Assembly (NCBI GenBank): GCA_018898455.1
Contig: JAHIJO010000232.1
Span: forward strand, 1-32,831
Direction: 5' to 3'
DNA from: Verrucomicrobiota bacterium
GTDB lineage: Bacteria; Verrucomicrobiota; Kiritimatiellia; JAAZAB01
DNA: 32,831 bases
Part shown: piece after piece, positions 15,819-32,831 of the stretch
How the letters are laid out: every line of letters starts with the position of its first letter
Numbering within the stretch: the stretch's first letter is position 1
Position numbers and translations under genes: made by a program
Notes under the pieces: generated by a model
The model's input: the letters and a program-made list of their open reading frames with translations, nothing else
Told to the model about the DNA's origin: nothing
Databases searched by the model: none

Positions 15819-16031
15819 ATGCGCCTGACATGCACGTTCCTTTCCGAACAGGAAAAACAACTCATTCACGAAGACCGTCTGGCGATCCACTCCACCATCG
15901 GCGTGAAATTCATGAGCGCCAGGGCCCTCAAGACCGCGCCCCAATCTTTTGTGCTCGGCGCCGTCGTCTGGCCGAATGTTGTCCTGGACGATATCCCGCG
16001 CCGCGCCGACCGGGATCTGGTATCCGATTAA
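15819..16031 (+). CDS. Small hypothetical protein (71 aa) between the nitroreductase and the radical SAM gene.
   Basis: The ATG at 15819 has GAGGT ~14 nt upstream. Third-codon positions are strongly GC-biased like neighbouring genes. I recognise no family. The ORF track's longer 15720 start overlaps the preceding gene. Confidence 0.4.
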   Translation: MRLTCTFLSEQEKQLIHEDRLAIHSTIGVKFMSARALKTAPQSFVLGAVVWPNVVLDDIPRRADRDLVSD

Positions 16032-16071
16032 TAAAAAAAAACGTTCAATTAGGCCACCAAGGCTCCCAATC

Positions 16072-17353: not shown

Positions 17354-19411
17354 TCATCTCCGGCTGACTTCTGATCTTTGACCTCTGATATCTGCTTCCA
17401 CTGCTTCCACCTGATCCACCAGCAAGGGAATTTTAGCCAAGGACCAGAGCGCATCTGTCAGAACGAACTGGTTCAAACCGGGCTTCAGCGGAACGCGCTC
17501 TATCCGCCATTCCACCAACTGCAGGTTCTGGAAATCAGCCTGACTGAACATGCCGAAGCGCACGCGCTTGGCCCCATTGGCAGCCATACCGCGAATGAGC
17601 AGCGTGACGATATTGGTTTGCGGCGTGAGATTATACACATCCAGCGTGGCCTTGTCTTCCAGGATTCGCCAATCGCGGAAGTCCTTCAACTGTTGCCACA
17701 GTTTGACATAGCCCCAGGAGGGAGCATACAACACCAGTGTACTCCGCCCCTGCTCGCGCGCATGTTGAATGACGTCGTCGCGGGTATTGTAAAAAATGGT
17801 CGAAATAATTCTATTCGTGGCAGGATCGTAAAAATCATCGCGATATGCCAGCCCCAACTTTGCCAGTTTGATCCCGGCCAGATTAGTAAAAACGACCTGG
17901 CGGGCGAAATGCCAATTGGTAAGCACCCCCATCCGCGCTCGCTCGCTATTGCAATATTCCAAATAGGCCGCATCGGGGAACTTTTCAAAAAATACTTTAG
18001 CCGTTGCCGGCCAATTGAACTGCTTGAATAAATCTTCAGGCTCCGACGGCACCGTAAAGGTAAAATAGACATTGGTGGAATTATGCACCCGCAGTTCATT
18101 CCACGGATCAAACCAGCGCTCGACGAGGACGAGAGTCCGCGGAGGCAGATGCGAGTCGCACCACTGCGCAATTTCCTTGAATGGCGCCGGTTTGCCGGTC
18201 AGTTGGGTGCAAAACCAGGCGGGTTGAAGACTCAGCGCCACGGCAATCGCCGTAATACCATAAGCCGGCGCCCGCCGCCAAACCGGGGATTTGATCATTC
18301 GGCGAACAAAGGGAATGGCGGACACATGCCAAACGCCATAGGCCAGCATGGCTATATATAGCGGCATTAAAAAGGCTACATGGCGCCGGCTATACGCAAA
18401 CGATCCGGTTGCTATCAGCGAGAGATAATAGACACAAAACCCGCCCAGGATAAACAGGAACACAATCCAAGCCCGCCGATATCGCATCCGATTGAATAGC
18501 AATCCCATGATCGTCAGAACACCGGTAACCACAAGGAAAACCGCCCGCCACGGGGTCGCGCCCCAAGAGGCGCTTTTTACGAGTTGCCATACGAATGACG
18601 CCATGGGCGTCTTCACCTGCCCGTGAACACGTTTGACCTGTTCTTTCGTTTCTGGACTTAACTGGTCTTTCAGAAAGTACGGCAATCCCCACGCCATAAA
18701 CAGCAACGGGAGGCCGAGCAAAACCGTAACGATCAACCACCACCAGAAATCCGGCCGTGCCTGCGGCTCACGCCATGCCCGACGCCCTAAAATCCACCCC
18801 AGAAACGGAACAAATAAGGCTCCGACCCACCAGCCCGAAACATGGCTGTATGTCATGAGGAAAAAACCGACCTGGGTCAGCAGGTGAAAGCTGATCGGGA
18901 AGGGTGTGCGCCGGTTGCGGTGCCGAAAAGCCCACAGACAGGCCCACGCCTGCAACGTCACGCCCAACAGCATCGCGGAATAAAAGTAGGCCTCGCGACT
19001 CAATTGGATATGGAACGGATTGACCGCCAGCCACAATGCCAGCGCCAGTCCAAAGACGCGCCCCGCCATTTGACGGCCTAACAGATACATACACCATACC
19101 ATCAGAATACCGAAGACCGCATTCGGCAAACGAATTATGAAGGCCGTTGGAGCGAGATGAAAGACATCAATAAACAATTTGGTAATGGCCAGCGAAAACG
19201 GAAACTGGGCCGTACGCCCCATCAACTCCATCCACTGGGTAAAAACCACCCAGCCGCTCACCGGACGGTGGCAGATATCAAAAAAGAGCATGGTGTCGGC
19301 GCGAAACGAGGAAACACCCAGATGATAAAGGCGAAAGCCCGCGGCCAGGGCCACGATAAAGACCAGGGCAACGACCGGCCATTTCTTTCTCGCTGTAACA
19401 ATATTATTCAT
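17354..19411 (-). CDS. ArnT/PMT-family (GT39/GT83-like) polytopic membrane glycosyltransferase using lipid-phosphate sugar donors.
   Basis: The ~685-aa protein has more than 10 predicted TM helices in the N-terminal two-thirds and a soluble C-terminal domain. The ATG at 19411 (MNNIVTARKKWPVVALVFIVALAAG...) is preferred over the track start at 19510. A truncated paralogous 5' fragment occurs at 21065..21403. Confidence 0.55.
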   Translation of the reverse strand: MNNIVTARKKWPVVALVFIVALAAGFRLYHLGVSSFRADTMLFFDICHRPVSGWVVFTQWMELMGRTAQFPFSLAITKLFIDVFHLAPTAFIIRLPNAVFGILMVWCMYLLGRQMAGRVFGLALALWLAVNPFHIQLSREAYFYSAMLLGVTLQAWACLWAFRHRNRRTPFPISFHLLTQVGFFLMTYSHVSGWWVGALFVPFLGWILGRRAWREPQARPDFWWWLIVTVLLGLPLLFMAWGLPYFLKDQLSPETKEQVKRVHGQVKTPMASFVWQLVKSASWGATPWRAVFLVVTGVLTIMGLLFNRMRYRRAWIVFLFILGGFCVYYLSLIATGSFAYSRRHVAFLMPLYIAMLAYGVWHVSAIPFVRRMIKSPVWRRAPAYGITAIAVALSLQPAWFCTQLTGKPAPFKEIAQWCDSHLPPRTLVLVERWFDPWNELRVHNSTNVYFTFTVPSEPEDLFKQFNWPATAKVFFEKFPDAAYLEYCNSERARMGVLTNWHFARQVVFTNLAGIKLAKLGLAYRDDFYDPATNRIISTIFYNTRDDVIQHAREQGRSTLVLYAPSWGYVKLWQQLKDFRDWRILEDKATLDVYNLTPQTNIVTLLIRGMAANGAKRVRFGMFSQADFQNLQLVEWRIERVPLKPGLNQFVLTDALWSLAKIPLLVDQVEAVEADIRGQRSEVSRR
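19105..19340. repeat. Copy A of a ~240-bp duplicated segment (the 5' coding end of the GT39-like gene). A ~145-bp core (19192..19336) is near-identical to 21175..21319.
   Basis: Direct comparison of the two stretches shows CGAAAACGGAAACTGGGCCGTACGCCCCATCAACTCCATCCACTGGGTAAAAAC...GCGAAAGCCCGCGGC shared with 2 mismatches. Flanks are ~85-90% similar. Confidence 0.8.
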
Positions 19412-19775
19412 ACTCACATCAGCGCTCCCGACCAGAGTTACCCGCAGAAATGGCAAACCGGCAAAACGTGAATTCCGTCCTCCGTTTTCCGCGGAGCATT
19501 CTCCATGCAAACAACAATTGCTTTCGCCGGTTTGGGTTCTCCCATGAGCGCGCGGAGTCCGCGAATATGACGGCCGCCAACCCGTGCAAAACGCTTGACC
19601 TCAATCACCAACGCGGATTGTGCCCGCAACCCAGAATGAAGATACACGCAAAAATGTGTATCTTTACGGGAAAGCGTCTAATGCCCTGAAGGCTATCCAT
19701 TCGACCGCCATGCCCTGCCGTCCTTCATAACTTGTCCTGGTGAGAACCATGCCCTGGCGAATAAACACTCCGGCT

Positions 19776-20954
19776 TCATTTTGCCCGATGCGAAGCAATT
19801 TCCCGCGCCAGTGCCGCCCGCCATTCGCGAGGCGCCGCCGGCAAAGCGCAGGCAGATACCCGTTCGGCAATCGGGAAGGAATGCCGTCCCGCATGCACAA
19901 TCCACAGATGATCCAGTTTCAGATCCGCCAGGGCGGTATAAACCGAACGGCTGGCCTGCGGCGCTTCCGCGTATTTGAATTCAAACCCATAGCGCCGCCC
20001 GTTGCCCATCACCAGCAAATCCAATTCAGCGCCGGAATAAGCGCCCCAAAAGTAAGCTTCTGGCACACGCAACATCCTCAATATCTGCTCCAGCGCGAAG
20101 CCTTCCCATGACGCACCCACCCGGGGATGACTTGCCAATGCATCGTAATTGTATAATGCCAGCAGACTGTGCAAAAGACCGCTGTCGCGAAAAAATATTT
20201 TCGGCGACTTGACTTGTCTTTTGCTCAGGTTCTCGTGCCACGGTTGCAGCTGCCGCACCATGAAAGTTTCCGTCAGCACGTCCAGGTAACCACGCACCGT
20301 TTTATCGCTGAGCCCCAGGGAGCCGCCAACCTCCGACGCATTCCAAATCTGCCCGTGATAATGCGCCAACATAGTCCAGAATCGCCGCATGGCGGGCGCC
20401 GGCACACGAATGCCCAACTGGGGCAAATCCCGTTCAAGAAACGTCCTGATAAATCCCTCGCGCCAGGCGACACTATTCTCCGGCGACTTTGCCAGAAACG
20501 ATCTTGGAAAACCTCCCTGCACCCATAATCGTTCGCATTGATCCACTCCCGTTTCCCATAATCCGAACCCCCCCATTTCGACGAACTCCACGCGCCCAGC
20601 CAGACTTTCGGAAACTGCGCGCACCAGTTGCGGCATCGCACTGCCGAGAATCAGAAAACGCGCAGGGAAGCGGGGACGATCGACCAACACCCGTAAAATT
20701 GGAAACAAATCCGGCCGACGCTGGATTTCATCCACCACGATAAGCCCCTTCAACGCGCCGAGCGTCAACTCGGGGTTCTGCAACCGCCGCTCATCCTGAA
20801 TGGATTCCAAGTCAAAAATAACAGACTTACGCCGACAGGCAATAATTCGCGCCAGCGTGGTTTTCCCGCATTGGCGCGGCCCCAGCAAAGCCACAACCGG
20901 AGAACGTCGCAAAGCCGTTTCAACGCGATTCTGATACTCATTGCGAGGAATCAT
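19776..20954 (-). CDS. AAA-family ATPase with a C-terminal DUF4143-like domain (an 'ATP-binding protein' of unknown function).
   Basis: Walker A LLGPRQCGKTTL and Walker B IVVDEIQ motifs are present. The ~390-aa size and overall layout are typical of AAA_14+DUF4143 proteins. It lies between the two GT39 5'-end copies. Confidence 0.7.
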   Translation of the reverse strand: MIPRNEYQNRVETALRRSPVVALLGPRQCGKTTLARIIACRRKSVIFDLESIQDERRLQNPELTLGALKGLIVVDEIQRRPDLFPILRVLVDRPRFPARFLILGSAMPQLVRAVSESLAGRVEFVEMGGFGLWETGVDQCERLWVQGGFPRSFLAKSPENSVAWREGFIRTFLERDLPQLGIRVPAPAMRRFWTMLAHYHGQIWNASEVGGSLGLSDKTVRGYLDVLTETFMVRQLQPWHENLSKRQVKSPKIFFRDSGLLHSLLALYNYDALASHPRVGASWEGFALEQILRMLRVPEAYFWGAYSGAELDLLVMGNGRRYGFEFKYAEAPQASRSVYTALADLKLDHLWIVHAGRHSFPIAERVSACALPAAPREWRAALAREIASHRAK

Positions 20955-20955
20955 G

Positions 20956-21015
20956 GTTGCAATCTATCCTTGAATATTCGGATTGTCAATCCGAATATTC
21001 AAGGATCTTTGCAAC
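20956..21015. promoter_or_regulatory. 60-bp imperfect palindrome with a 37-bp perfect core (18-bp arms, 1-nt centre) immediately upstream of the ATPase start codon. It is a candidate operator or RNA hairpin sequestering the RBS.
   Basis: The core CCTTGAATATTCGGATTG-T-CAATCCGAATATTCAAGG sits at ~20968..21004. It is flanked by 7-bp outer arms GTTGCAA / TTGCAAC. On the minus strand the palindrome ends 2 nt before the ATG, and its right arm contains the only SD-like AAGGA. Confidence 0.6.
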
Positions 21016-21064
21016 TATTCAGGAGCCGGAATTCTGTCTTCTGACTAATTGTGAGCTGTGAAAT

Positions 21065-21403
21065 TTATGCAATACCAAACACAGTCAGAATACCGAAGAG
21101 CGCATTCGGCAGGCAAATGATGAAGGCCGGCGGGGCCAGATGGAACAGATCAATCAACAACTTGGTGATTGCCGGCGAAAACGGAAACTGGGCCGTACGC
21201 CCCATCAACTCCATCCACTGGGTAAAAACTACCCAGCCGCTCACCGGACGGTGGCAGATATCAAAAAAGAGCATGGTGTCAGCGCGAAACGAGGAAACAC
21301 CCAGATGATAAAGGCGAAAGCCCGCGGCTAAAGCGATAACACCGATCAACGCAACGATCCACCATTTTGTCCTGACGGCGAGCGTGCTCACATGTTTTTT
21401 CAA
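21065..21403 (-). pseudogene. Truncated paralogous copy (N-terminal 112 codons) of the ArnT/PMT-family glycosyltransferase.
   Basis: Its 53-aa stretch ALAAGFRLYHLGVSSFRADTMLFFDICHRPVSGWVVFTQWMELMGRTAQFPFS is identical to residues of the full-length gene at 17354..19411. The ORF terminates exactly where the palindrome/ATPase cassette begins. Confidence 0.65.
21085..21320. repeat. Copy B of the duplicated GT39 5'-end segment (see 19105..19340).
   Basis: It has the same orientation as copy A, with a near-identical 145-bp core at 21175..21319. Confidence 0.8.
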
Positions 21404-21486
21404 TGACCATCTGTTATTATTGATTGAACGAAGGCAAATTTATCTTGGATTTATACTCATTTTAACCGAAAACCTGTCCAATGGAT

Positions 21487-21495
21487 GGGGGGGGG
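21487..21495. repeat. G9 homopolymeric tract in the intergenic region at the boundary of the lower-GC sugar island.
   Basis: ATGGATGGGGGGGGGCTCAC contains nine consecutive G. It lies between the truncated GT39 fragment and the 3' end of the GHMP kinase gene. Confidence 0.6.
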
Positions 21496-21577
21496 CTCAC
21501 AGTATATTTGATTAATTTACTTCACTCATCTTTGACTGACAACAGATATCGCTTCATGCTTCAATACCATCTCCTTA

Positions 21578-22558
21578 TTAATCTTGAACGTAGATGATCT
21601 TACCGCCCTGAGGCTCGAACGTGAACGGGGTTTCCTTAAGACCCAAAAGAGCTTTGCGCACATTGGCCTGATGCTCTTTCTCGCAATAGAACAGAAGGAA
21701 TCCCCCGCCGCCAGCTCCCAGAAGCTTTCCTCCGACTGCCCCAGCTTCCAACGCTTTCTGATAATACCCGTTGATCTCAGGATTGCTGATGCCGCCCGCA
21801 AGGTCTTTCTTTAAGAGCCAGCCCTCATGCAGGATCTCCCCGAATCCGTGTAGGTCATTCGTTTGAAGTTTCTTGAGAAGCTTATGAGACAATGCAACAA
21901 TATCATCCAGACGAGCCATATTCTTCTCCGTGTTCTCACCCTGTTCTTTGAGGATTGTCGAAGATACCCGTGTTGTGCCTGTATAAAAAAGCAGGAGCTT
22001 ATCATTCAGGATTTTCTTTGTCTCGCTGGAAAAAATGACCGGATCAACAAAAACGCTCTCATCACTGTTGAACTTGATATACTGGAACCCTCCGTAAGCT
22101 GCGATATATTGATCCTGCTTGCCGATCGGATTCTTCAATATCCCAATCTCGATCTCACAGGCCTCACGGGCCAACTGGTCTGCTGAGACATGCCTTCCCT
22201 GATACGCATGCAGCGCATTAAGAACACCTACCGCCAAGCTGCTCGATGATCCAAGGCCAATGCCCGCCGATCCCAATGGAACATCCCCCATATAAACGAC
22301 CTCGATCCCCTTCTTGACCCCTACCATCTTCAAGGCCTCACGGATAATGTTATGTTCGACTTCATCCGTTGATCCGACAAGCTCGGTCTTGGAATAGCTG
22401 ACGCGCACGAGGTCATCGAACTTCTTGTTCACGGTAATGTATATGTATTTATCGATCGCTGTTGAAACAACGGAGCCTGTTTTCTGCCTGTAATAGGCCG
22501 GCAGATCTGATCCGCCCCCGGCAAAACTCATCCGCAACGGAGTTCGCGAAATAATCAT
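21578..22558 (-). CDS. GHMP-family sugar kinase (HddA-like; D-glycero-D-manno-heptose 7-phosphate kinase type).
   Basis: The N-terminus MIISRTPLRMSFAGGGSDLPAYY is typical of HddA-like kinases. The GHMP ATP-binding motif PLGSAGIGLGSSSSLAVGV is present. An ATGA overlap with the upstream SDR gene indicates an operon. Confidence 0.65.
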   Translation of the reverse strand: MIISRTPLRMSFAGGGSDLPAYYRQKTGSVVSTAIDKYIYITVNKKFDDLVRVSYSKTELVGSTDEVEHNIIREALKMVGVKKGIEVVYMGDVPLGSAGIGLGSSSSLAVGVLNALHAYQGRHVSADQLAREACEIEIGILKNPIGKQDQYIAAYGGFQYIKFNSDESVFVDPVIFSSETKKILNDKLLLFYTGTTRVSSTILKEQGENTEKNMARLDDIVALSHKLLKKLQTNDLHGFGEILHEGWLLKKDLAGGISNPEINGYYQKALEAGAVGGKLLGAGGGGFLLFYCEKEHQANVRKALLGLKETPFTFEPQGGKIIYVQD

Positions 22559-23448
22559 CGTTCACCTCCCCATGAATGAATGCATTCTTGAAGACCCTGC
22601 TCAAGGCTGACACCTGCCCGCCACCCTAATATCTTCTCGGTCTTGGACATATCGGCCCAAAATTCAGCGGTCGGAGCCGCTGTTGAAGCGCGCAACTGTT
22701 GAGCATATTCCGGCTTCCTCCCCATCGACCGCTCCAGTATCTCACACACCTTCCAGACAGGACAAGCCCAACCAGTCCCCACATTATAAATCCCTGTCAG
22801 AACATCTTTCTTCGCTGCCAGCAGCAGTGCCTTGGCAGCATCATCGACAAAAACAAAGTCGTTTGCATTGGCCGGAGTCTTAACAACAGGGAGATCCCCC
22901 TGCTTCAAAGACCGGATGAGCGTCGGGATCAGGGACTCTGACCGCTGGCCAGGGCCATAGACATAAAATAACCGCATCCAGACGAATGACAACTGGTATT
23001 TTGCGGCAAGCATGAGCCCCATATCACACAGGGCATGTTTGGCCCAGACAAAATAGCTACTGGTCGCCACCGTATCATCTTCACGGCAGGAACCTAAGGA
23101 CTTGCCGTATTCCCAACAGCTTCCCAATGCAACGATCCTGCAACATCCACATTCCTCGGCCAGGAAACGGAACAAGGCAGTTCCCTGTTCCAGGTTTTTT
23201 CGGGACGCCTCAAACCCATAATCGGGGAGACCCTGCCAGGCAAGATGGATGCACACATCCGGATTAATCTCCGCCAGCCTGGCGGAAAAAGAGCTTAAGT
23301 CCGCGAGGTCACCCAAAACCACCTTGACACCGCTTCCCAGTGAACCCAAACTTGGAAGGCACAGGGCGTAAATCTCATCCGCCGGATCAATGAACTTCTC
23401 CAACCGGCGACCGATAAACCCTGTGACGCCTGTAATCAGTACTTTCAT
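22555..23448 (-). CDS. NAD(P)-dependent epimerase/dehydratase-family SDR (candidate nucleotide-sugar 4-reductase).
   Basis: It has the N-terminal Rossmann motif MKVLITGVTGFIGRRL and is 297 aa, the size of an extended SDR. Confidence 0.6.
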   Translation of the reverse strand: MKVLITGVTGFIGRRLEKFIDPADEIYALCLPSLGSLGSGVKVVLGDLADLSSFSARLAEINPDVCIHLAWQGLPDYGFEASRKNLEQGTALFRFLAEECGCCRIVALGSCWEYGKSLGSCREDDTVATSSYFVWAKHALCDMGLMLAAKYQLSFVWMRLFYVYGPGQRSESLIPTLIRSLKQGDLPVVKTPANANDFVFVDDAAKALLLAAKKDVLTGIYNVGTGWACPVWKVCEILERSMGRKPEYAQQLRASTAAPTAEFWADMSKTEKILGWRAGVSLEQGLQECIHSWGGER

Positions 23449-23458
23449 CGTATCCCCG

Positions 23459-24022
23459 TCAACACTCCAACCCTTTTTCCTTCACTACGAATTCCGAAAA
23501 GCTCATGGCCCCGACATCCTTGTCCGAAATGATCGGCGCCCCTTCCAACGGCCAAGGAATCCCAAGGTCCCTGTCGGCCCAGTTAATGGTCCCGGCGCTT
23601 TGCGGATGATAGGCTGTGTCCATTTTGTACAACAAAGAACAATCCGGGGTCATCGTGCACATGCCCAGCGCCAAACCTTTCGGCACATACAAGAGCTCAG
23701 GATCGGACGCGACGAGGGTCACGCCGTCCCATGAACCAAAAGTCGGCGCCCCCTTGCGCAAATCGACAAAAGCCATGAACGCCTTTCCATGGGCAATACG
23801 GACCAGCTTTGTTTCTGCATAAGGAGGACGCTGAAAATGCAAACCCCTCACCGTGCCCTTTTGGGCCGAAAAGGAGTGGCTTTCCTGGATCCAGTCCACG
23901 GGCAGTCCCTGGGGCGCAAAAAACTCCTTATCATAAGTCCGCGTGAAGAATCCTCGGTTGTCACGATGGATATCCAATCGTATCCTGAAAGCGCCGGGAA
24001 CCTTTAACGCGATCTTTTCCAC
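23459..24022 (-). CDS. RmlC-like cupin (dTDP-4-dehydrorhamnose 3,5-epimerase family) nucleotide-sugar epimerase.
   Basis: At 187 aa it has the RmlC-like motif VRGLHFQ and cupin-type beta-rich composition. AAAGGAAG lies upstream of the ATG. Confidence 0.65.
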   Translation of the reverse strand: MEKIALKVPGAFRIRLDIHRDNRGFFTRTYDKEFFAPQGLPVDWIQESHSFSAQKGTVRGLHFQRPPYAETKLVRIAHGKAFMAFVDLRKGAPTFGSWDGVTLVASDPELLYVPKGLALGMCTMTPDCSLLYKMDTAYHPQSAGTINWADRDLGIPWPLEGAPIISDKDVGAMSFSEFVVKEKGLEC

Positions 24023-24038
24023 GGACAGGATCTTCCTT

Positions 24039-25271
24039 TCATTCTACCAAGAATGGCGTTTTCGGGAACGGGACAAGGTACGGCCCCGCATATCCCGAAC
24101 CACGGCATTCGCGCATAATCTCATCCTTGAAATTCCAGGCAATGATAAAAACAAGATCCGGCTTGAGCGCCAAGCCCTTATCTCTGGAAATGATGGGGAT
24201 ATTGGAACCCGCCGTCCATCGTTCCTGTTTAAGCCCATTATTATCAATGATGGCTGCAATCTCCTTGGTGCTCAACCCGCAAAAATTCAAATATGTCGAA
24301 CTGCGCGCTGATGCGCCGAACCCCACGACGGTCTTCCCTTTAAACTCACGAAGGATCTCGATTGTTCTCGTTTTATGTTCCTGGCTCCTCAGGGCAAAAT
24401 CCTTCCAGCCAGCGACGGTATTTGTTCCTGCCTTGTCTTCAGCCGCAAAGGCTTCCGTATACGACCCATTAACAGGACATTGCGTCTTGGAAAAATAAAT
24501 AACATTCGACCCACCACTGATCGGGCTGACATCCATATGAAATGGGTACAAGCCAAAACGGCCCAGAAACGCTGTCATGGACCGGGTCGTGAAATAACAC
24601 AGATGCTCATGATAAATCGAATCATAATGCAGTTCACGTGCAATAATGCCACCGTCATGAAATTCGATAATCCCCACCCCGTCATCCGCCAGGACATCAG
24701 AAATCCCGAGAATGACATCATGGAGCTCGCTCACGTGCGGGATGACATTGCGCGCCATCACAACCCTGGCTCTGCCATGTTGGGCGACCACATCAGCCGC
24801 GGTTTCTCGGTTCCAATAAGCGCATAACGTCCGAACACCCGCTTCCTCTGCGATCTTGGCGATATTTTTTGCCGGCTCAATACCCAGTACGGAATGCCCC
24901 GCGTCAACAAAGGACTTTAGAATCGTGCCGTCGTTGGAGGCGATCTCGACGACGAGGTCTCCCACCTTCAAACCCGTGCGTTTCACCGTGCGATCGAAGA
25001 AGACCTTTGCGTAATCCCGCGCTGCCAAAGACGTCCCCGTGACCCAAACGTACGAATCAAATAGTAGTTCTTTGCGGACCGTGTCCTTGAGCTGAAATAA
25101 GCCACAATCCAAACAAAAGGCTGTCCGCAACGGATAACGTCGAGCCTGCTCTATTGCCGAACCCAACAGCGCATTGGCCAGCGGTTGTGGTCCAAGATCA
25201 AGAATACCCACAAGTTTCGCCGAAGAACAAGAACGGCATTCTTTGATCGTTTCAAACTCGGCGTGCTTCAT
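24039..25271 (-). CDS. TylCIII-type NDP-ketosugar C-methyltransferase (N-terminal Zn-ribbon plus class I SAM MTase plus C-methyltransferase C-terminal domain).
   Basis: A CxxC...CxxC zinc ribbon (CRSCSS...CLDCG) is present. The SAM motif I is VVEIASNDG. The conserved C-methyltransferase motif is YHEHLCYFT. An ATGA overlap with the upstream SDR gene indicates an operon. Confidence 0.65.
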   Translation of the reverse strand: MKHAEFETIKECRSCSSAKLVGILDLGPQPLANALLGSAIEQARRYPLRTAFCLDCGLFQLKDTVRKELLFDSYVWVTGTSLAARDYAKVFFDRTVKRTGLKVGDLVVEIASNDGTILKSFVDAGHSVLGIEPAKNIAKIAEEAGVRTLCAYWNRETAADVVAQHGRARVVMARNVIPHVSELHDVILGISDVLADDGVGIIEFHDGGIIARELHYDSIYHEHLCYFTTRSMTAFLGRFGLYPFHMDVSPISGGSNVIYFSKTQCPVNGSYTEAFAAEDKAGTNTVAGWKDFALRSQEHKTRTIEILREFKGKTVVGFGASARSSTYLNFCGLSTKEIAAIIDNNGLKQERWTAGSNIPIISRDKGLALKPDLVFIIAWNFKDEIMRECRGSGYAGPYLVPFPKTPFLVE

Positions 25272-26314
25272 CTTTTCCCTTTATCCACCCATGAAAGGTC
25301 CGGACCCAGCAATCCTTCCGACCGCAGGTGATGGATCTGCTTCAGCCGGATGCACATCCGGCCTCGGAAATGCTCTTCTGTAAAATTGATCCTCTTGAAC
25401 AGGTCAGTGAGATCTTTCCCTCCCCGATCAAGGCCCCATTCGGGCTTGAAATGATCTTTGAGAACGGTGAAGATCTTCTTGAAGCTCACGCGATACGTCC
25501 TCGAATCATTGCCATGTTCGCCGGTAAAAACAAGCGAGCTGCCCGGGACCGCGCGTTGAGCGGCTTCGGCCAGATCGCGCACCATGAAATTCCCGTTCGG
25601 GATCCCGACATTGAATGCCTGGCCGGAAACAATATCCAGCGGGGCTTCAAGTCCGGCAATGTAAGCATTCGAAACATCGTGCACATGGACAACAGGACGC
25701 CATGGAGTTCCATCGCTTTTGATCTCTATTTTGCCCGTAGTATAAGCACAGGCAACAAGGTTGTTGTAAACGATATCACAACGTAATCGCGGACTGGCCC
25801 CGAACACCGTGGACGGGCGGAAACAGATCACGTGAAAATTCTTGTCCGCCATCTTCCTCAGTTCGCACTCGGCATCCCATTTCGTACGGGCGTATGCCGT
25901 CAAAGGCTGCTTTGCGCTGTTGTCCTCTTCGATCTCAGCATCCAACCTGGAAATGCCATACATGCTCTGTGAGGACGAATAGATGAACCGCTTCACGCCA
26001 GCCTTCTTGGCCGCTTTTCCCGCGAGGACCGTTCCACCAAGGTTGATCTCTTCAGTCAATCCAGGCGTGAGCTCACCCAACGGATCATTGGAAAGCGCCG
26101 CGAGATGGATAAGGGCGTCACATCCTTTCATATCGGTTGCCTTGATATCCCGGATATCTTTGGATATCTGGACGATCGATGGGTTATGAGGATACAAAAG
26201 GCAATCCTTGTAATAACCCACATCCAATCCAACGACCTCATACCCCTTCGCAAAAAGCATATCCACAAGGACGCTGCCGATATACCCCTGATTTCCCGTA
26301 ACCAGCACCTTCAT
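25268..26314 (-). CDS. NAD-dependent epimerase/dehydratase-family SDR (candidate nucleotide-sugar dehydratase or epimerase).
   Basis: It has the Rossmann motif MKVLVTGNQGYIGSVL and the catalytic YARTK (YxxxK). It is 348 aa. Confidence 0.6.
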   Translation of the reverse strand: MKVLVTGNQGYIGSVLVDMLFAKGYEVVGLDVGYYKDCLLYPHNPSIVQISKDIRDIKATDMKGCDALIHLAALSNDPLGELTPGLTEEINLGGTVLAGKAAKKAGVKRFIYSSSQSMYGISRLDAEIEEDNSAKQPLTAYARTKWDAECELRKMADKNFHVICFRPSTVFGASPRLRCDIVYNNLVACAYTTGKIEIKSDGTPWRPVVHVHDVSNAYIAGLEAPLDIVSGQAFNVGIPNGNFMVRDLAEAAQRAVPGSSLVFTGEHGNDSRTYRVSFKKIFTVLKDHFKPEWGLDRGGKDLTDLFKRINFTEEHFRGRMCIRLKQIHHLRSEGLLGPDLSWVDKGKR

Positions 26315-26510
26315 ATCAGACCTTCCTGCTTCCTATTTGATAGATACCAACAGTAATGTCTAATGGGCCGTTTCCATGATATAATATTCTTTGCTGTCGA
26401 CCAAGAAATTAAGATCGTCGGGCTTGTTTAAGAGATATCCCGGTCCAATATTTTTTCCCTAGCCACCCTACGGATCACCACACATATCCCGTCAAAATAG
26501 TCTATAAAGA

Positions 26511-27260
26511 TCATCTTATATCTTTCTGCTCAAGCTTCTGGAACCCCTTCGACAGGGTCACGGCCTCAAAATTTCTTAAACTATCGAGCGAGGTGATAAA
26601 ATAATATTGCTCATCTGTCATGAATGCGCCGAGCCGCCCTTCTGCCGCCAGCTGCGCTAGGATCTTCTTCTCAAAAGAAATATTCCCTGTCTCCGAGACA
26701 TCCAGAACTTTCTTCTCGACAATAAAAAACCCGATATCGATACCATTCAATCCCGGCGCGCGCCGGGTCTTGTCATACGCCCCAACCCTGCCGGAGGCAT
26801 CAACAATGACATTGTTCTCATGACCGTATTCGCCTGTCCCCTTCTTATTGCTAAAGACGGTTGTTGTAACGGGAAGGCCTAACCTCTCATAATTTGCGGT
26901 CATTTTCTCCATAGGTATTGGCCAATAATTGTCGCCATACAACAGCAGAAACCGGTCGCTTAGCTTCTCATACGCATTCAGCAGGCGGCGTCCCGTAAGG
27001 TCTTCTTCCGTGCCCACGGAATACTCGATTTGGACACCGCAGGCCAGACAATCCCCGTAATACGCCATGATCTTCTCGGCCTTATAACCGACAAGAAAAA
27101 GCACCCGCATAATCCCGGCATCCACCAGAGACCGCAGCAGATAATCCGTAAAAGGAACGCCATGCACGGGGGCCATGGGCTTGGGTAATTCATCCGTTAA
27201 CGGCCGCAGGCGTTCCCCCCGACCTCCCGCCAATATGACAGCCTTTTCTATCTTTCCCAT
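26511..27260 (-). CDS. Sugar-1-phosphate nucleotidyltransferase (HddC/GDP-heptose or dNDP-sugar pyrophosphorylase type).
   Basis: The N-terminal motif VILAGGRGERLRPLTDELPKPM is the G-x-G-x-R-x-PLT signature of the NTP_transferase family. Confidence 0.7.
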   Translation of the reverse strand: MGKIEKAVILAGGRGERLRPLTDELPKPMAPVHGVPFTDYLLRSLVDAGIMRVLFLVGYKAEKIMAYYGDCLACGVQIEYSVGTEEDLTGRRLLNAYEKLSDRFLLLYGDNYWPIPMEKMTANYERLGLPVTTTVFSNKKGTGEYGHENNVIVDASGRVGAYDKTRRAPGLNGIDIGFFIVEKKVLDVSETGNISFEKKILAQLAAEGRLGAFMTDEQYYFITSLDSLRNFEAVTLSKGFQKLEQKDIR

Positions 27261-27415
27261 CTGCCGCCTTCAACTCAGAGCGCATCACGCTTAAATCGAT
27301 TGCGATTCCTGTAACCACAGGACTTCTGGATCAACTGCTGAAAACAGCCGTTAAGCCCTTCCGCGGCCACACTGCTCAGGTTGTAGCGGAATGTATCCAT
27401 GTTCGCCATCCCGGT

Positions 27416-28252
27416 TCACGGCGTGGAGGCCGTCCTCCTCTCGCGCCAGCGTCTCCGCAAGGCCAGGTATATAAAGAAAAGTCTCTTTTCGATTAGCGTC
27501 AACGCGAAGTGAACGGTCATCCACGCGACTTCAATCGGGATCAGATGCACACCGTGTTTGGCCGCCGTCATCAGCATGTAGCGCCTCGCCATTGGCGCGT
27601 ATCGCACCGTCTCATTGGCCCCATGATACCGGTTGCCGATCAACAAATCCGGGATATGGTAGATTGGCGCCTCCCGACAGATCGCTATCGAAAGGTCAAT
27701 GTCCGAGGTGTAGCAGATCGTCTGATCATAACACTGCCCCCGCATGGATGAAGTGCGGATCAGCAGGGGAATGCCGAACCAGTTCCGAGTGGTCTTGAAG
27801 CACTGCATGGCGATCGACCGGGAATCCGCCAAGCCAGAGCGCCCGAATCGCCTGACGGCCACGATCCGGTCCTCCTCGTCAATGTAGGCAAGATCGCAGT
27901 AGACTGACGGCACCTCCGGGTGGGACTCCATAATGGCGAAGGCCAGCGCCAATGCCTCCTTGTGGAACAATATGTCGTCACTGCACAGCATCATATAATA
28001 GGGCGTACGGACTTGTTCCAGACATCGGTTGGCATTGGCAACGAAGCCGCCGTTTCGCGCGTTTTCAATCATTACAAGCCGTTTATCGCCACAGAAAGAC
28101 CGAACGACGTCACGCGTGCGGTCCGTCGAGGCGTTGTCGGAAACCACAATCTGTAGATCGGCGAACGACTGGGAAAGCACTGACTCGATCGCCTTCCCAA
28201 CGAACCGTTCCTGATTATAGACGGGAATCAGAATTGTAATAGCCGGCTTCAT
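27416..28252 (-). CDS. Family-2 glycosyltransferase (GT-A fold), possibly a polyprenyl-phosphate sugar synthase of the ArnC/DPM1 type.
   Basis: MKPAITILIPVYNQERF...SDNASTD plus the CSDDIL DxD-like motif are present. There is a single C-terminal hydrophobic stretch (VAWMTVHFALTLIEKRLFFIYLAL). The ATG at 28252 is preferred over the track start at 28309. Confidence 0.65.
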   Translation of the reverse strand: MKPAITILIPVYNQERFVGKAIESVLSQSFADLQIVVSDNASTDRTRDVVRSFCGDKRLVMIENARNGGFVANANRCLEQVRTPYYMMLCSDDILFHKEALALAFAIMESHPEVPSVYCDLAYIDEEDRIVAVRRFGRSGLADSRSIAMQCFKTTRNWFGIPLLIRTSSMRGQCYDQTICYTSDIDLSIAICREAPIYHIPDLLIGNRYHGANETVRYAPMARRYMLMTAAKHGVHLIPIEVAWMTVHFALTLIEKRLFFIYLALRRRWRERRTASTP

Positions 28253-28941
28253 CCGTCGGACTTTTAGGTACTTTTCGTGAAGCGCTGCACGCACATTTGC
28301 CCATGACAATCAATCCGTGCACACTCTATATGACGCGTCTGCGGATTGACAGCAAAATCCGCCTCCATAAGCAATGGCGATCAGCCATTGAGGGTTTCGA
28401 CGACACAGGGCCAAAATACGACCGAATCGTCCCGCGATTCCTTCCCATGTATACCTGATGGAATTTGCCAAGGCCATCCCAAGCTTGACATTCATCGGTC
28501 CGTTTTATATGACTCGGACGAATAGAGCGTGATGATCTCGGAAATATCGAACAACTGATCCAGAACGGAATCGAGACTCATATCGAGCCGGTCCTTGGCC
28601 GCGGTTCTTTGAAGCATGAAGGAGGGTCAGGGCCAGCACACAATAGAAGGCATGCACAGGTAGCGGCCTCATCAGGCACTGGACAAACGAACACCTCCGA
28701 AGGTATATTCCGTCGAGATTGAGTTGCGCCCGCCCCCGACCACCCACAATGGACGGAGAGGAAAGGCAAATAAAAAGGTGGAACAACGAGCAACCATTAG
28801 CGTATCCTGCAATCGGAACTGTCCAACCAACGGGGAGAAGCTCTCGAACAATACATAACTATGAAACGCGGGACAGCCTGAACAGAGGATCACCCGTACG
28901 AAAGCCGCTGCGGCGAAGGGTTGCCCCATAAGGAGATGGTC

Positions 28942-30108
28942 ATGACGGCCCTGTGTCCGCTGTGCGGTTCTGCGCGGCATGAACAGATATACCACCAGAA
29001 GGCTCTGCCGCTTGTCAGCAACACCGTGTACGGAACGGCATCCGAAGCCATTGCATGCGCCAAAGAACCTGTTATCCTGCATCTCTGCCGGCAGTGCGGC
29101 CTTGTGTTCAACCCCTCCTTTGATTCGAGCAAGATCGCTTACGATACGCACTACGACAACCGCCGGGATTCTTCTCCGCGGTACCGGCGCTATCTGGACG
29201 AATTGACGACGACCCTCAAGAATGCGTATGGGCTGACAAGAAAAAATGTTCTCGAGGTGGGATGCGGCCAGGGGGACTTTTTGCGTCTATTTACACAGGT
29301 GAGCGAATCAAGCGGAGCGGGGTATGACCCTGCGTATCAGGGACCTGAACAGTTCGGGGCAACATCTTTCGTGCGCGCCCCATTTGTTCCGGGCCGGCAA
29401 ACGACGCCCTACAACACCTTGATCCTTCGCCACGTTCTGGAGCACATTGAACAACCAGGGCTGTTTGTTCAAGCTGCTCTTGACAGCCTGGTTACGGCGG
29501 ATGATGTTAGTGTCGTTGTCGAAGTTCCCTGTTTTGCCTGGATCCTTGACGCTGGCGCCTATTGGGATATTGCATACGAGCACTGCAATTACTTTACCAG
29601 GGAATCCTTGTCTTTCCTCTTCGACCAAGCGGGGATAGAGGTTATGGATGTACAGAATGTCTTCGAAGGCCAGTACTTGCTCGCCGTCGGCAAGGCTCGC
29701 CAACGATCCCGACTGCCGCACGCTTTTTGTCAGCGTCCCGTCCCGCAGAAGGAATTCGAACATGCTCTATGCCCGAAGCTCAGGACCTTTGAACAAAAAC
29801 GTGCGTCGATTACCCATCAGCTGGGGCAGTTCGATCAGTTTACCATCTGGGGAGTAGCCGGAAAGGGAGTTACCTTTGTGAATCTGCTCGATCAAGATCA
29901 GCTGGACAAAATCCCCTTTTTGATCGATATGAATCCGAACAAGCAGAGAAAATACTGCCCCGGCACGGACAAGCTGATTGTCCCACCCTCCGTCTTGGCC
30001 GGCGAAACGCAAGTACGCGTCATCCTTTTGATGAACCCCATCTATTATGACGAGATAACGGAACAAACGAACACGTTTGGTAATACGTACCACCTGTTGG
30101 TTCCTTGA
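28942..30108 (+). CDS. Second TylCIII-type C-methyltransferase, distantly related to 24039..25271.
   Basis: A Zn ribbon (CPLCGS...CRQCG) is present. The SAM motif I is VLEVGCGQGDFL. The C-methyltransferase motif is YEHCNYFT. AAGGAG lies 6 nt upstream of the chosen ATG 28942, and the track ORF starts at TTG 28921. Confidence 0.65.
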   Translation: MTALCPLCGSARHEQIYHQKALPLVSNTVYGTASEAIACAKEPVILHLCRQCGLVFNPSFDSSKIAYDTHYDNRRDSSPRYRRYLDELTTTLKNAYGLTRKNVLEVGCGQGDFLRLFTQVSESSGAGYDPAYQGPEQFGATSFVRAPFVPGRQTTPYNTLILRHVLEHIEQPGLFVQAALDSLVTADDVSVVVEVPCFAWILDAGAYWDIAYEHCNYFTRESLSFLFDQAGIEVMDVQNVFEGQYLLAVGKARQRSRLPHAFCQRPVPQKEFEHALCPKLRTFEQKRASITHQLGQFDQFTIWGVAGKGVTFVNLLDQDQLDKIPFLIDMNPNKQRKYCPGTDKLIVPPSVLAGETQVRVILLMNPIYYDEITEQTNTFGNTYHLLVP

Positions 30109-30119
30109 AGGAGATGACC

Positions 30120-30842
30120 ATGCGCGACGACATTTCACCCCTGCGAAAATATGTTGCTGTTAATAAAGATAAAGACGAGCTGGCTTTACAGACGCAAGCT
30201 CGACAATGGATATGTCTCGCTCATCAGAACAAATTATCCTATGAAATTGACTGGCTGGGTGTTCCAATTATTCAGACACCGGAAGACATGGTCTTGATGC
30301 AGGAACTTCTCTACACCGTGAGACCGGATATCCTCATCGAAACGGGAATCGCCCACGGCGGGTCCCTCATCTACTATGCCTCGCTGTTTGAACTCATCGG
30401 AAAGGGCTTGGTCATTGGCATTGACAGGGAAATCAGGCCAAATAACCGCGCAGTGATAGACGCTCATGCCATGAGAAAGCGAATCGTGATGATCGAGGGA
30501 GATTCCGTTTCTGACGAGACGCTGATAGCCGTGCGAGACCTGGTCCCCGAGGGCAAACGCACGGTTGTTTGTCTCGACGCCGATCACACGAAACAACACG
30601 TCCTCCGCGAACTTGATCGGTACCATCATTTCGTGGATATCGGGTCGTACCTAGTTGTGTTTGATACGTGCAGTTCCATGTTGGCGGAGCATGGGGTCGT
30701 CGGTCCCGAATGGCGCCATAATGGCCCGAAAGAGGCCGTCGCCGAGTTCCTCAATCTCCACAAAACCTTTGCGGTGGATACTTCCTACGATAAATTGTAT
30801 GTATCCCATAATCAAGGCGGTTTTCTCAAGCGTATCGCCTGA
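30120..30842 (+). CDS. CmcI-family class I SAM-dependent methyltransferase (sugar O-methyltransferase type).
   Basis: At ~240 aa it has a layout like CmcI/rhamnosyl-O-methyltransferase proteins (WLGVPIIQTPEDMVLMQELLYTVRPDILIETGIAHGGS...VIGIDREI). AAGGAG lies 6 nt upstream of ATG 30120. Confidence 0.55.
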   Translation: MRDDISPLRKYVAVNKDKDELALQTQARQWICLAHQNKLSYEIDWLGVPIIQTPEDMVLMQELLYTVRPDILIETGIAHGGSLIYYASLFELIGKGLVIGIDREIRPNNRAVIDAHAMRKRIVMIEGDSVSDETLIAVRDLVPEGKRTVVCLDADHTKQHVLRELDRYHHFVDIGSYLVVFDTCSSMLAEHGVVGPEWRHNGPKEAVAEFLNLHKTFAVDTSYDKLYVSHNQGGFLKRIA

Positions 30843-30880
30843 GCGACGCGCTTGATGGCTGCAAACCTGGTGCCCTACTC

Positions 30881-32557
30881 GTGCCAACTATACTGCTACT
30901 GGTTATCCCAAATTATTCGATCAAAATGCTAGAAGAAGATGCCGCCCTTGCTCGCGGCGGCCAAGGTGATTTCACCAAGAGCGTTGACTGGGGGATATCC
31001 GTTCCCATCGGGATCTTGTATATTGCGGCAAACCTCCGGGCGCATGGCCATGAAGTGCGCATTCTTGATTTGCACAGAGCTTTTAAGCAATGCCGCGATA
31101 ATGGCTATTTTGCCACCCACACGTTGCCATCTTTCTTTGAGGAATTCTTTGATGAAACGGTGCGGGACATGTTGCCGGATATTCTCGGATTGAGTTGTCT
31201 GTTCAACGTTTCGTCAAGCACGGCTCTTCATCTTGCGCAGCGCTGCCAACAGTTCTTTCCATCAGTGGCCGTGGTCATGGGAGGACATTACCCTACCAGT
31301 GAGTATCCCGCTCTGGTCCGTGATGGTAGCGCTAACTATATTCTCCTTGGAGAGGCGGAAGAGTCGTTCGCTCTTTTATGCGATCACTTTACCGATCCCG
31401 ACCGCGACGCTCTTCTCGCGGCCTCTCCGGGCATTGTTCAGGCAAAGGCGCTTTCTGCTTATGACCACAGGGCGGTAGTGGTTCAGGACCTAGACGCATT
31501 ACCCATGCCTGATCTGGACATGTTGCCACACCGGGATGAGTATCTTCTTGCTTCGTTACATGCCGAACGGGTCGGGGTAGCGTTGGCTGGAAAGACGATC
31601 AAGGCAGCGCCTCTTTTTACCACCCGCGGATGCCCGATGCACTGTACATTTTGCGCTTCATTCGCTGTCCATGGCAGGAAAGTCAGGGCGCATTCCATAG
31701 ACTACCTGATGAGATGCATCAACGTTCTGGTGGCTCGATACGGGGTCAACCATCTGCTGATTGAAGACGATATGTTCAACTATTCCATATCGCGTTCATG
31801 TGCCTTTTGCGACGCTGTTTACAAAAGGTACGGAAACCATTTCACGATCGAGTTCCCCAACGGGTTCGCAATATGGAATCTTAACAATGAACTGGCCGCC
31901 AAGCTCAAGAAGATCGGTCTGTCTTCGGTAACGGTGGGAGTCGAGAGCGGCAGCCCTTATGTCCAGAAGCATATTTTGAAGAAGAATCTCAACTTGACAC
32001 GCGTACGCGAAAACATACGTCTTTTTCAGGCCCATGGAATCGGGGTACGCGCCTTTTTTATCGTCGGCTTTGTCGGCGAGACACTTAAAATGATGGAGGA
32101 GACGGTGCAGTTTGCTCTGAGTCTGAATATCGACTGGGCTGAGGTCAAGATATTCACTCCGCTGGTCGGCAGCGAGATGTATGCGTGCGCGCATGATAAG
32201 GGGTATCTGATCGGCGACATGAGCGAGCACGTGTATGGTCGCTGTTGCGTTAAGACCCCTGAGTTTTCGCCTGAAGAGGTCAAACAGGTCCAGTATGACG
32301 CCAATATCAGGATTAATTTTCTTAACAACCTTTTTTTGAGAGAAAAGCGTTTCATGGAAGCAGAGAAAGTATTCAAGGGGCTTTTGGCTCGATTTCCAGG
32401 ACATGTCTTTGCCCAGTGGGGTTTGGAACAGGCTCTGGCTGGTCAGGGAAAAGAGAAACAGGCGCAGGAGGCACACGACGATATGCTGGGGATGGCAGAC
32501 CGTTCCACGCTCGTAGCAGAGTTGCTGAAGAAGTATGGCATCTTGCGCTCAGATTAG
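30881..32557 (+). CDS. B12-binding-domain radical SAM enzyme (class B radical SAM, candidate methyltransferase).
   Basis: An N-terminal Rossmann-like B12-binding region (TILLLVIPNY...GILYIAANLRAHGHEVRILDL) is present. The radical SAM cluster motif is TTRGCPMHCTFC (C-x3-C-x2-C). It is 558 aa. The GTG start at 30881 lacks a clear SD, and the alternative ATG at 30926 would drop the first beta-strand of the B12 domain. Confidence 0.7.
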   Translation: MPTILLLVIPNYSIKMLEEDAALARGGQGDFTKSVDWGISVPIGILYIAANLRAHGHEVRILDLHRAFKQCRDNGYFATHTLPSFFEEFFDETVRDMLPDILGLSCLFNVSSSTALHLAQRCQQFFPSVAVVMGGHYPTSEYPALVRDGSANYILLGEAEESFALLCDHFTDPDRDALLAASPGIVQAKALSAYDHRAVVVQDLDALPMPDLDMLPHRDEYLLASLHAERVGVALAGKTIKAAPLFTTRGCPMHCTFCASFAVHGRKVRAHSIDYLMRCINVLVARYGVNHLLIEDDMFNYSISRSCAFCDAVYKRYGNHFTIEFPNGFAIWNLNNELAAKLKKIGLSSVTVGVESGSPYVQKHILKKNLNLTRVRENIRLFQAHGIGVRAFFIVGFVGETLKMMEETVQFALSLNIDWAEVKIFTPLVGSEMYACAHDKGYLIGDMSEHVYGRCCVKTPEFSPEEVKQVQYDANIRINFLNNLFLREKRFMEAEKVFKGLLARFPGHVFAQWGLEQALAGQGKEKQAQEAHDDMLGMADRSTLVAELLKKYGILRSD

Positions 32558-32566
32558 TCTGACGAC

Positions 32567-32661
32567 CATGCGTTAAGCCACGGTCTCAGGAAAACTGACA
32601 TGATCTTAGCCAACGAAAAGAGTCAGGCAACCATTATCAAAATGTTCATGCGTGGCTTAAG
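32567..32661. repeat. Inverted repeat (10-bp arms TTAAGCCACG / CGTGGCTTAA, each preceded by CATGCG) downstream of the radical SAM gene. Significance is unknown.
   Basis: The sequence reads CATGCGTTAAGCCACG...(~68 nt)...CATGCGTGGCTTAAG. The spacer holds no convincing ORF. Confidence 0.3.
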
Positions 32662-32831
32662 ACCCACACATATCTAGAGCCTGTCCCACGGGGGAATAAA
32701 TTTAGATACCCCCTGGGCGATCAATACCCCAACAGATAACATTTTCCGGCCGGGTAATTCCAATTTCACATATCGCCGCTAAAACTCCCGCAAAACGGGG
32801 TATAACGATGGGCGTGTTTTTAGCCCATTCC

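Follow-up and report, generated by a model that had tools for sequence, protein, structure and literature searches.

The stretch of DNA analysed here (the window) comprises the 32,831 nucleotides of contig JAHIJO010000232.1 (GenBank assembly GCA_018898455.1, positions 1 to 32,831, forward strand), which derives from a Verrucomicrobiota bacterium of the Kiritimatiellia. Close to its right-hand end lies an open reading frame (ORF) for a protein of 558 amino acids (aa) that joins a cobalamin (B12)-binding domain to a radical S-adenosylmethionine (SAM) domain, next to genes for the activation and modification of a sugar. As far as its sequence can tell, this protein is a class B radical SAM enzyme belonging to no named family, i.e. 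the representative of a family not described before, found in a pathway context that is itself new.

Architecture of the 558-aa protein

An earlier annotation of the window, made from the nucleotide sequence alone (the sequence-only reading), had described the gene product as a B12-binding radical SAM protein. This was borne out by a search with the Pfam hidden Markov models, in which both domains exceeded their cut-offs: PF02310 (B12-binding) at aa 41-164 (55.9 bits, cut-off 32.1, E 4.8e-15) and PF04055 (Radical_SAM) at aa 247-412 (63.7 bits, cut-off 29.5, E 3e-17). In the AlphaFold2 model of the protein, whose mean predicted local distance difference test score (pLDDT) is 91.7, the N-terminal domain forms a five-strand Rossmann fold that includes a strand at aa 3-8. 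The three cysteines expected to hold the [4Fe-4S] cluster (C251-x3-C255-x2-C258) were invariant in every alignment made. The C-terminal part (aa 464-551) is entirely helical in the model; the profile of the family matches consensus tetratricopeptide repeat (TPR) proteins at positions 478-546, and several homologues carry precomputed TPR Pfam families. This tail, seen in none of the solved relatives of the protein, may be a docking surface.

The solved cobalamin-dependent radical SAM enzymes have a Gly-x-Ser-x-Leu motif after strand 3, Gly-Gly on strand 4 and Gly-Glu at helix 5, together with a long, His-free loop at the place where MetH has its His ligand (PMC9204698). All three motifs can be recognized in the 558-aa protein (Table 1). 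In the motif downstream of strand 3, the G, S, L and F are kept in 68, 59, 58 and 68, respectively, of 72 homologues. The pair G134-G135 is found in all 72 homologues and in all of 51 distant relatives, and G157-E158 in 71 of the 72, with E158 invariant in the 51 distant relatives. Both the alignment and the model show a long loop without a conserved His between strand 3-8 and helix 43-54. Residue N109 falls opposite Trp76 of TokK, the residue under the cobalt, when placed by hand from the N-terminal profile alignment. When a profile of the N-terminal 178 residues was compared with the PDB, it retrieved TokK (E 1e-6), OxsB, the B12 domains of methylmalonyl-CoA mutase, corrinoid proteins, MetH, CysS and TsrM; AprD4 was absent among these matches. 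Cobalamin binding by the protein is therefore a well-supported prediction, and the cofactor is presumably used, because the motifs are invariant or nearly so in the 72 homologues and the 51 distant relatives.

It should be noted that the corresponding NCBI record (P0001, 543 aa, otherwise identical) starts at ATG 30926. Between the upstream in-frame stop and this ATG, the only start codon (ATG, GTG or TTG) is GTG 30881. A start at this GTG adds 15 residues (P-T-I-L-L-L-V-I-P-N-Y-S-I-K) that match the consensus K-I-L-L-x-V-S-P-N-F-S-I-K-M-L, present in 20 of the 22 aligned homologues, and that supply strand beta-1 (aa 3-8, pLDDT about 95), which exists only with the GTG start. Because the added residues are conserved and are modelled as strand beta-1, GTG 30881 is considered the correct start, as the sequence-only reading had proposed, and the 543-aa call is too short; the start at ATG 30926 was rejected. 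That reading was also right in finding no Shine-Dalgarno sequence at GTG 30881, though most genes of the cluster carry one; none precedes ATG 30926 either. The gap between the stop codon of the preceding CmcI-type gene and GTG 30881 is 38 nt.

An exhaustive search gathered the orthologues in a single cluster at 50% identity (680 bits), the next score being 407 bits, and retrieved 1,395 clusters (50% identity) at E <= 1e-30 with the 558-aa protein. This gap in score and this number of clusters indicate that the family stands apart within a very large radiation of uncharacterised proteins. Full-length orthologues, 43-56% identical, amount to about 58 clusters.

Gene cluster and orthologous loci

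The coordinates of the radical SAM gene, of its motifs and of the neighbouring genes are collected in Table 1.

Table 1. Features of the radical SAM gene and of the adjoining gene cluster (positions in the window).
Feature	Position	Strand	Basis
B12-binding radical SAM enzyme gene (558 aa, GTG start)	30881..32557	+	ORF list, Pfam
N-terminal cobalamin-binding Rossmann domain, aa 1-180 (predicted)	30881..31420	+	
Gly-x-Ser-x-Leu motif, G103-L-S105-C-L107-F108-N109	31187..31207	+	motif definition from PMC9204698
Gly-Gly motif, G134-G135, strand beta-4, dimethylbenzimidazole-tail pocket	31280..31285	+	role from PMC9204698
Gly-Glu motif, G157-E158, directly before helix alpha-5 (model helix H159-168)	31349..31354	+	role from PMC9204698
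Radical SAM [4Fe-4S] motif, C251-P-M-H-C255-T-F-C258	31631..31654	+	read from sequence
C-terminal TPR-like helical repeat domain, aa 464-551	32270..32533	+	model, profile match, homologue Pfam
CmcI / rhamnosyl O-methyltransferase family methyltransferase	30105..30842	+	PF04989 215 bits; CmcI structure 2br3 E 1e-8
Divergent TylCIII-family methyltransferase, 395 aa, CxxC...CxxC N-terminus	28921..30108	+	Pfam Methyltransf_23, Methyltransf_14
Glycosyltransferase family 2 (GT2) protein, divergently transcribed	27416..28309	-	PF00535 78 bits
Sugar-1-phosphate nucleotidyltransferase, mannose-1-P or heptose-1-P guanylyltransferase-like	26511..27260	-	PF00483
Short-chain dehydrogenase/reductase (SDR), 348 aa, candidate nucleotide-heptose C4-dehydrogenase	25268..26314	-	PF01370 141 bits
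Canonical zinc-binding sugar 3-C-methyltransferase (TylCIII/TcaB9 type), 410 aa	24039..25271	-	Pfam Methyltransf_13, _23, _14
RmlC-like 3,5-epimerase	23459..24022	-	PF00908 183 bits; TIGR01221 157.2 bits (cut-off 155.75)
SDR, 297 aa, candidate C4-ketoreductase	22555..23448	-	PF01370 106 bits; PDB relatives epimerases, dehydratases, reductases
GHMP kinase, HddA-like (D-glycero-D-manno-heptose 7-phosphate kinase)	21578..22558	-	Pfam GHMP_kinases_N, _C

The sequence-only reading had placed the radical SAM gene in an operon directly downstream of a TylCIII-type and a CmcI-type methyltransferase. Two such genes do lie upstream on the same strand, but the canonical TylCIII-type enzyme is the 410-aa protein encoded on the opposite strand. 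The latter matches the D-mycarose 3-C-methyltransferase structure 4rv9 with E 2.5e-58 and TcaB9 with E 6e-47, whereas the 395-aa protein matches 4rv9 over its full length with E 1.6e-12 and shares 23% identity with the 410-aa enzyme. As listed, the ORFs of the 395-aa methyltransferase and of the CmcI-type enzyme both begin with TTG, and in both an AAGGAG sequence is followed by in-frame ATG codons (28936/28942 and 30114/30120, respectively); the true starts are probably ATG 28942 and ATG 30120. The Shine-Dalgarno sequence of the CmcI-type gene overlaps the stop codon of the gene before it. A separate observation concerns aa 331-380 of the 410-aa protein, over which TAL-effector repeat proteins were matched weakly at the level of the whole sequence (E values as low as 4e-14); no stretch passes alone, and the matches are probably a compositional artefact.

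Among the genes on the reverse strand, the top NCBIfam match of the GHMP kinase was, by a wide margin, HddA (146.8 bits, cut-off 600), and the nucleotidyltransferase matched two models without reaching the cut-off of either, with 109 bits for mannose-1-P guanylyltransferase and 81 bits for HddC; in other loci, its orthologues form a single protein with a GmhB-type phosphatase. The closest solved structure to the 348-aa SDR is 6vo6 (E 4.3e-35), which we take to be the GDP-heptose C4-dehydrogenase Cj1427 of Campylobacter jejuni. The cluster has an SDR of the C4-oxidizing type, an RmlC-like epimerase and a second SDR, with activities predicted from homology. GmhA and GmhB are not among the genes of the window, where only about 270 nt of contig follow the radical SAM gene, and a scan of the window for promoters and terminators returned nothing informative.

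Conservation of this neighbourhood was assessed by counting genes in 17 distinct loci (designated by L numbers), whose orthologues of the radical SAM gene are again 43-56% identical and belong to at least six lineages of bacteria and archaea (Kiritimatiellae, Thermoplasmatales, Dehalococcoidales, Deltaproteobacteria, Anaerohalosphaeraceae and Nitromaritima). An HddA-like kinase is present in 12 of the 17 loci and a CmcI gene in 11. The SDR of the 348-aa type (62-67% identical) recurs in nine; eight of these were confirmed by tblastn, and the ninth, at the P0054 locus, is deduced from its size, its position and its Pfam match. Seven loci contain a GmhA-like SIS isomerase, usually along with a fusion protein that combines a nucleotidyltransferase and a GmhB-type phosphatase. 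GmhA was the top NCBIfam match of the SIS proteins (75-112 bits, cut-off 209), the GmhB-type partners, for which it was GmhB, reached 172-174 bits (cut-off 178), and the HddA-like orthologue in L008 had HddA as its top match, below cut-off, as in the window. One orthologue locus also has transketolase and transaldolase genes. In L003 (5451-7289), L008 (4671-6491) and L104 (3801-5612), the nucleotidyltransferase and the GmhB-type phosphatase are further fused to a uridine-kinase/PRK-like domain (about 605 aa in all); in L103, the uridine-kinase/PRK-like part is a separate gene. A metagenome scan with a single-protein query yielded one further orthologue, L089.

The immediate surroundings of the radical SAM gene are also recurrent. 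A GT2 gene flanks it in most orthologue loci, and in the unfused loci the CmcI gene either adjoins it or sits within one or two genes. One homologue (P0035, 796 aa) is a radical SAM protein that continues at its C-terminus into CmcI. An artefact of gene calling was considered for this fusion and appears unlikely: the locus translates to the full 796 aa, and the order of the parts is that of four unfused loci. In another orthologue locus, CmcI is fused to an acetyltransferase. The 395-aa methyltransferase has orthologues next to the radical SAM gene in L089, L103, L105 and L106, the 297-aa SDR lies directly upstream of it in L001, L003, L105 and L106, and an aminotransferase-type enzyme is added in L001, L006 and L104. 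Two loci, L005 and L007, are devoid of heptose genes within 10 kb, yet have nucleotide-sugar and glycosyltransferase genes around. In L007, the neighbours of the radical SAM gene are a gene for a pterin-binding DUF4346 protein and, in fragments, the plug domain of a TonB-dependent receptor (9288-9641 and 12633-13525).

Taken together, the neighbourhood conserved across phyla and the CmcI fusion uphold the link with sugar modification drawn in the sequence-only reading. Its description of the region as a sugar island likewise stands in so far as this is a sugar-modification cluster, but the HddA-like and GmhA-like partner genes point to a nucleotide-heptose pathway and not to a generic hexose. 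We infer from these genes a pathway of the GDP-D-glycero-D-manno-heptose type, serving a cell-surface glycan. The supposed rarity of such enzymes in surface-glycan synthesis, by contrast, is true of characterized systems only, as B12-binding radical SAM genes are common in metagenomic glycan loci; L001 has six of them in 21.7 kb. Paralogous genes of this kind are numerous in the glycan loci of uncultivated organisms (L001, L003, L005, L008 and L013), and giant fusions of radical SAM, GT2, TPR and methyltransferase parts occur, such as a protein of 1,877 aa in L006.

As to the remainder of the window, the G+C content is about 0.59 over the first 20 kb and falls to about 0.47-0.56 across the glycan cluster (approximately 21000-32831). 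A drop of this sort, typical of surface-glycan islands, is compatible with horizontal transfer; the family of radical SAM orthologues is spread patchily over bacterial and archaeal phyla. At the border between the housekeeping part of higher G+C content and the glycan island there is an AAA_14/DUF4143 ATPase gene (19776-20954, reverse strand). An ORF of 2,961 aa (911-9796, forward strand) contains two GH94 supersandwich domains, a GH94 catalytic domain and a glucoamylase-like domain, an architecture that recalls cyclic beta-1,2-glucan synthases, and matched no NCBIfam model. A second, unrelated radical SAM protein is encoded at 15949-17193 (forward strand; TIGR03916, 'putative DNA modification/repair radical SAM protein', 286.9 bits, cut-off 343.5), downstream of a ferredoxin-nitroreductase fusion (14978-15808, forward strand), while the 718-aa ORF at 17354-19510 (reverse strand) has no Pfam or NCBIfam match.

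Proposed reaction and its alternatives

The radical SAM enzyme probably makes an unusual modification of a cell-surface sugar. In the pathway envisaged, the HddA-like kinase and the nucleotidyltransferase would turn heptose 7-phosphate into a nucleotide-heptose, the 348-aa SDR would oxidize it at C4, and the TylCIII-type enzyme would C-methylate it beside the ketone; epimerization by the RmlC-like enzyme and reduction by the 297-aa SDR would follow. The operon at 28921-32557 would afterwards add more decorations. In this operon, the 558-aa protein is proposed to be a B12-dependent radical C-methylase of an unactivated heptose carbon, an assignment for which we see the chances as evenly poised. 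One molecule of SAM would be split to the 5'-deoxyadenosyl radical, which would remove a hydrogen atom from one of the unactivated sp3 carbons in the heptose; the resulting substrate radical would receive a methyl group from methylcobalamin, and a second SAM would regenerate methylcobalamin. The CmcI-type enzyme would then O-methylate a hydroxyl nearby. The substrate may be the nucleotide sugar in its free form or a glycan attached to a lipid. What would result is a heptose with many methyl groups, either lengthened to eight carbons or carrying an additional branch, that anaerobic bacteria and archaea display on their surface; this prediction we put forward tentatively and hold slightly more doubtful than sound.

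Radical methylation is favoured because the cobalamin motifs are conserved, because most characterized cobalamin-binding radical SAM enzymes are methylases (PMC12931638, PMC9204698) and because a methyltransferase gene either adjoins the radical SAM gene or forms one gene with it. Several observations, however, weigh against it. The 558-aa protein falls below the cut-off of every curated NCBIfam model, and the methylase families (the models covered Sden_1168, PhpK, HpnR, KedN5, the C-methyltransferases of ribosomally synthesized peptides (RiPPs), the methyl-coenzyme M reductase (MCR) glutamine methylase and TsrM) are all far from reached. The best curated methylase match, the Sden_1168 P-methyltransferase, scored 113.3 bits (cut-off 575), followed by ApyD with 105 (cut-off 750) and AprD4 (NF033070) with 103.1 (cut-off 500; only aa 180-469 align), and the models of HpnJ (92.3 bits, cut-off 578) and BchE (90.4 bits, cut-off 481) score about level with those of the methylases. 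None of 50 distant relatives reaches a curated family cut-off either. The nearest solved relative, by sequence and by fold, is AprD4 (31.4), with MgmA (29.6), CysS (28.2) and TsrM (28.0) close behind, and RimO (25.1), MiaB (22.6), TokK (20.9) and OxsB (17.0) further down the same ranking. AprD4 dehydrates the 1,2-diol of a sugar and binds no cobalamin (PMC12931638), and several relatives that act on sugars (OxsB, HpnJ and AprD4) do not methylate. Moreover, the cluster already has three SAM-dependent methyltransferases, so that the methyl count needs no fourth, and in L001 the radical SAM gene is kept without CmcI and without the C-methyltransferase. An Rfam scan of the window gave no match of any kind, and thus no cobalamin riboswitch, nor does the window contain a cob or btu gene. 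Finally, the likeliest target, the carbinol C6 or C7 of the glycero side chain, is suggested by analogy with GenK and Fom3 only.

The sequence-only reading had foreseen that the protein might cluster with non-methylating families. This is partly so, in that AprD4 is the nearest solved relative, but the N-terminal domain keeps all the cobalamin motifs and matches true B12 domains. The radical SAM core is thus nearest to a non-methylase and the N-terminal domain nearest to true B12 domains, and the reaction is settled by neither fold nor sequence.

This leaves room for reactions other than methylation, of which an AprD4-like radical dehydration is one: loss of water from the C6/C7 glycol or from a ring diol would give a keto- or aldehyde-deoxy-heptose, to be reduced by an SDR. 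It would provide another route to deoxy-heptoses, with a first SDR that looks like a C4-dehydrogenase and not like a 4,6-dehydratase. Nevertheless, AprD4 works without cobalamin (PMC12931638), while the family of the 558-aa protein keeps all three cobalamin motifs; the N-terminal domains align with AprD4 in no search, the score of 103 bits is far from the cut-off of 500, and both SDRs are already assigned to oxidation and reduction at C4. Dehydration, though chemically appealing, thus sits badly with the conserved cobalamin motifs and is judged decidedly improbable. We rate as unlikely, though less so, an enzyme that employs cobalamin on the heptose for something other than methyl transfer, such as ring contraction, skeleton rearrangement, cyclization, or anaerobic insertion of oxygen followed by O-methylation by CmcI. 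Such an enzyme would find parallels in OxsB, HpnJ and BchE, and in the hydroxylate-then-methylate logic of CmcJ/CmcI. On the other hand, a sugar with a rearranged skeleton is, to the best of our knowledge, known from none of these organisms, and the radical SAM gene is also found without CmcI (L001, L003). No curated family of this kind is reached, and these reactions are a minority among the characterized cobalamin radical SAM enzymes (PMC12931638).

It is also conceivable that the enzyme, like CysS or TokK, extends a methyl group installed by its neighbours, converting the methoxy group made by CmcI into ethoxy or isopropoxy, or the C-methyl group into ethyl. However, L001 has neither CmcI nor the C-methyltransferase, and L003 has a C-methyltransferase without a nearby CmcI, which implies that the methyl group cannot always be the substrate; we regard chain extension as very improbable. 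Least credible of all is a substrate that is not a sugar (a lipid carrier, a peptide or a cofactor), the position in a glycan cluster being incidental. The TPR tail, as a protein-interaction module, and the lack of heptose genes within 10 kb in L005 and L007 would suit it, but these two loci lie amid nucleotide-sugar and glycosyltransferase genes, heptose and methyltransferase genes accompany the radical SAM gene repeatedly in phyla of both bacteria and archaea, and one homologue is a fusion. Over the orthologous loci as a whole, the persistence of the radical SAM gene without CmcI or the C-methyltransferase indicates that its constant companion is the heptose core pathway, and not any one methyl group.

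Significance and comparison with known systems

A literature search found nothing relevant that ties cobalamin radical SAM enzymes to the synthesis of heptose, O-antigen, capsule or nucleotide sugars; a paper on Lactococcus that recurred among the matches proved irrelevant. The family described here is a well-defined, testable lead, not demonstrated new chemistry. If the proposal holds true, a B12-radical SAM step would be described for the first time in the primary biosynthesis of cell-surface glycans, the reach of B12 radical chemistry would extend from antibiotics, cofactors and peptides into everyday surface-sugar biosynthesis, and heptose derivatives not yet seen by glycan chemists would be predicted. 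The orthologous group is clean, the likely substrate is defined by the pathway partners, and the intermediates can be made with characterized Campylobacter enzymes, which makes the proposal testable. In addition, related enzymes crowd the sampled glycan loci of uncultivated anaerobes, and part of the surface-glycan chemistry may therefore escape current annotation.

The best chemical analogy is offered by GenK, GenD1 and Fom3 (compare the list in PMC12931638), which place a methyl group on an unactivated sp3 carbon that bears a hydroxyl, in a sugar or in a substrate linked to a nucleotide. They belong, however, to antibiotic pathways of actinomycetes and not to surface heptose pathways of anaerobes or archaea, and are likened to the 558-aa protein by chemistry, not by sequence. 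Among the solved enzymes, AprD4 (PDB 6FD2, 3'-deoxygenation in apramycin biosynthesis) lacks the TPR tail and acts in an aminoglycoside antibiotic pathway, not in that of a surface glycan; its N-terminal domain binds no cobalamin and in no sequence search aligns with the 558-aa protein. MgmA/QCMT (9CCB), CysS (9N1B), TokK (7KDX) and the non-radical TsrM (6WTE) share 17-19% identity with the protein, but their substrates are peptides or small aromatic or beta-lactam molecules, and their C-termini differ and have no TPR tail.

The TylCIII/TcaB9 pathways (mycarose, tetronitrose, virenose) have in common with the window a zinc-binding 3-C-methyltransferase, an epimerase and a reductase acting on a 4-keto nucleotide sugar. 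These pathways, however, concern 6-deoxyhexoses and employ nucleophilic (enolate) methylation only, and we know of none that includes a B12 radical SAM enzyme.

A further comparison is with the modification of GDP-heptose in C. jejuni, which involves GmhA, HddA, GmhB, HddC, the C4-dehydrogenase Cj1427, C3/C5 epimerases and C4 reductases (PMC10680097). The same enzyme types recur in the window and the orthologue loci, namely the HddA-like kinase, GmhA, the GmhB-nucleotidyltransferase, the SDRs and the RmlC-like epimerase. C-methyltransferases, CmcI-type enzymes and radical SAM enzymes are all missing from the C. jejuni list (PMC10680097), whereas in the window such a set is enlarged by two enzymes of the TylCIII family, one of the CmcI type and the B12 radical SAM enzyme.

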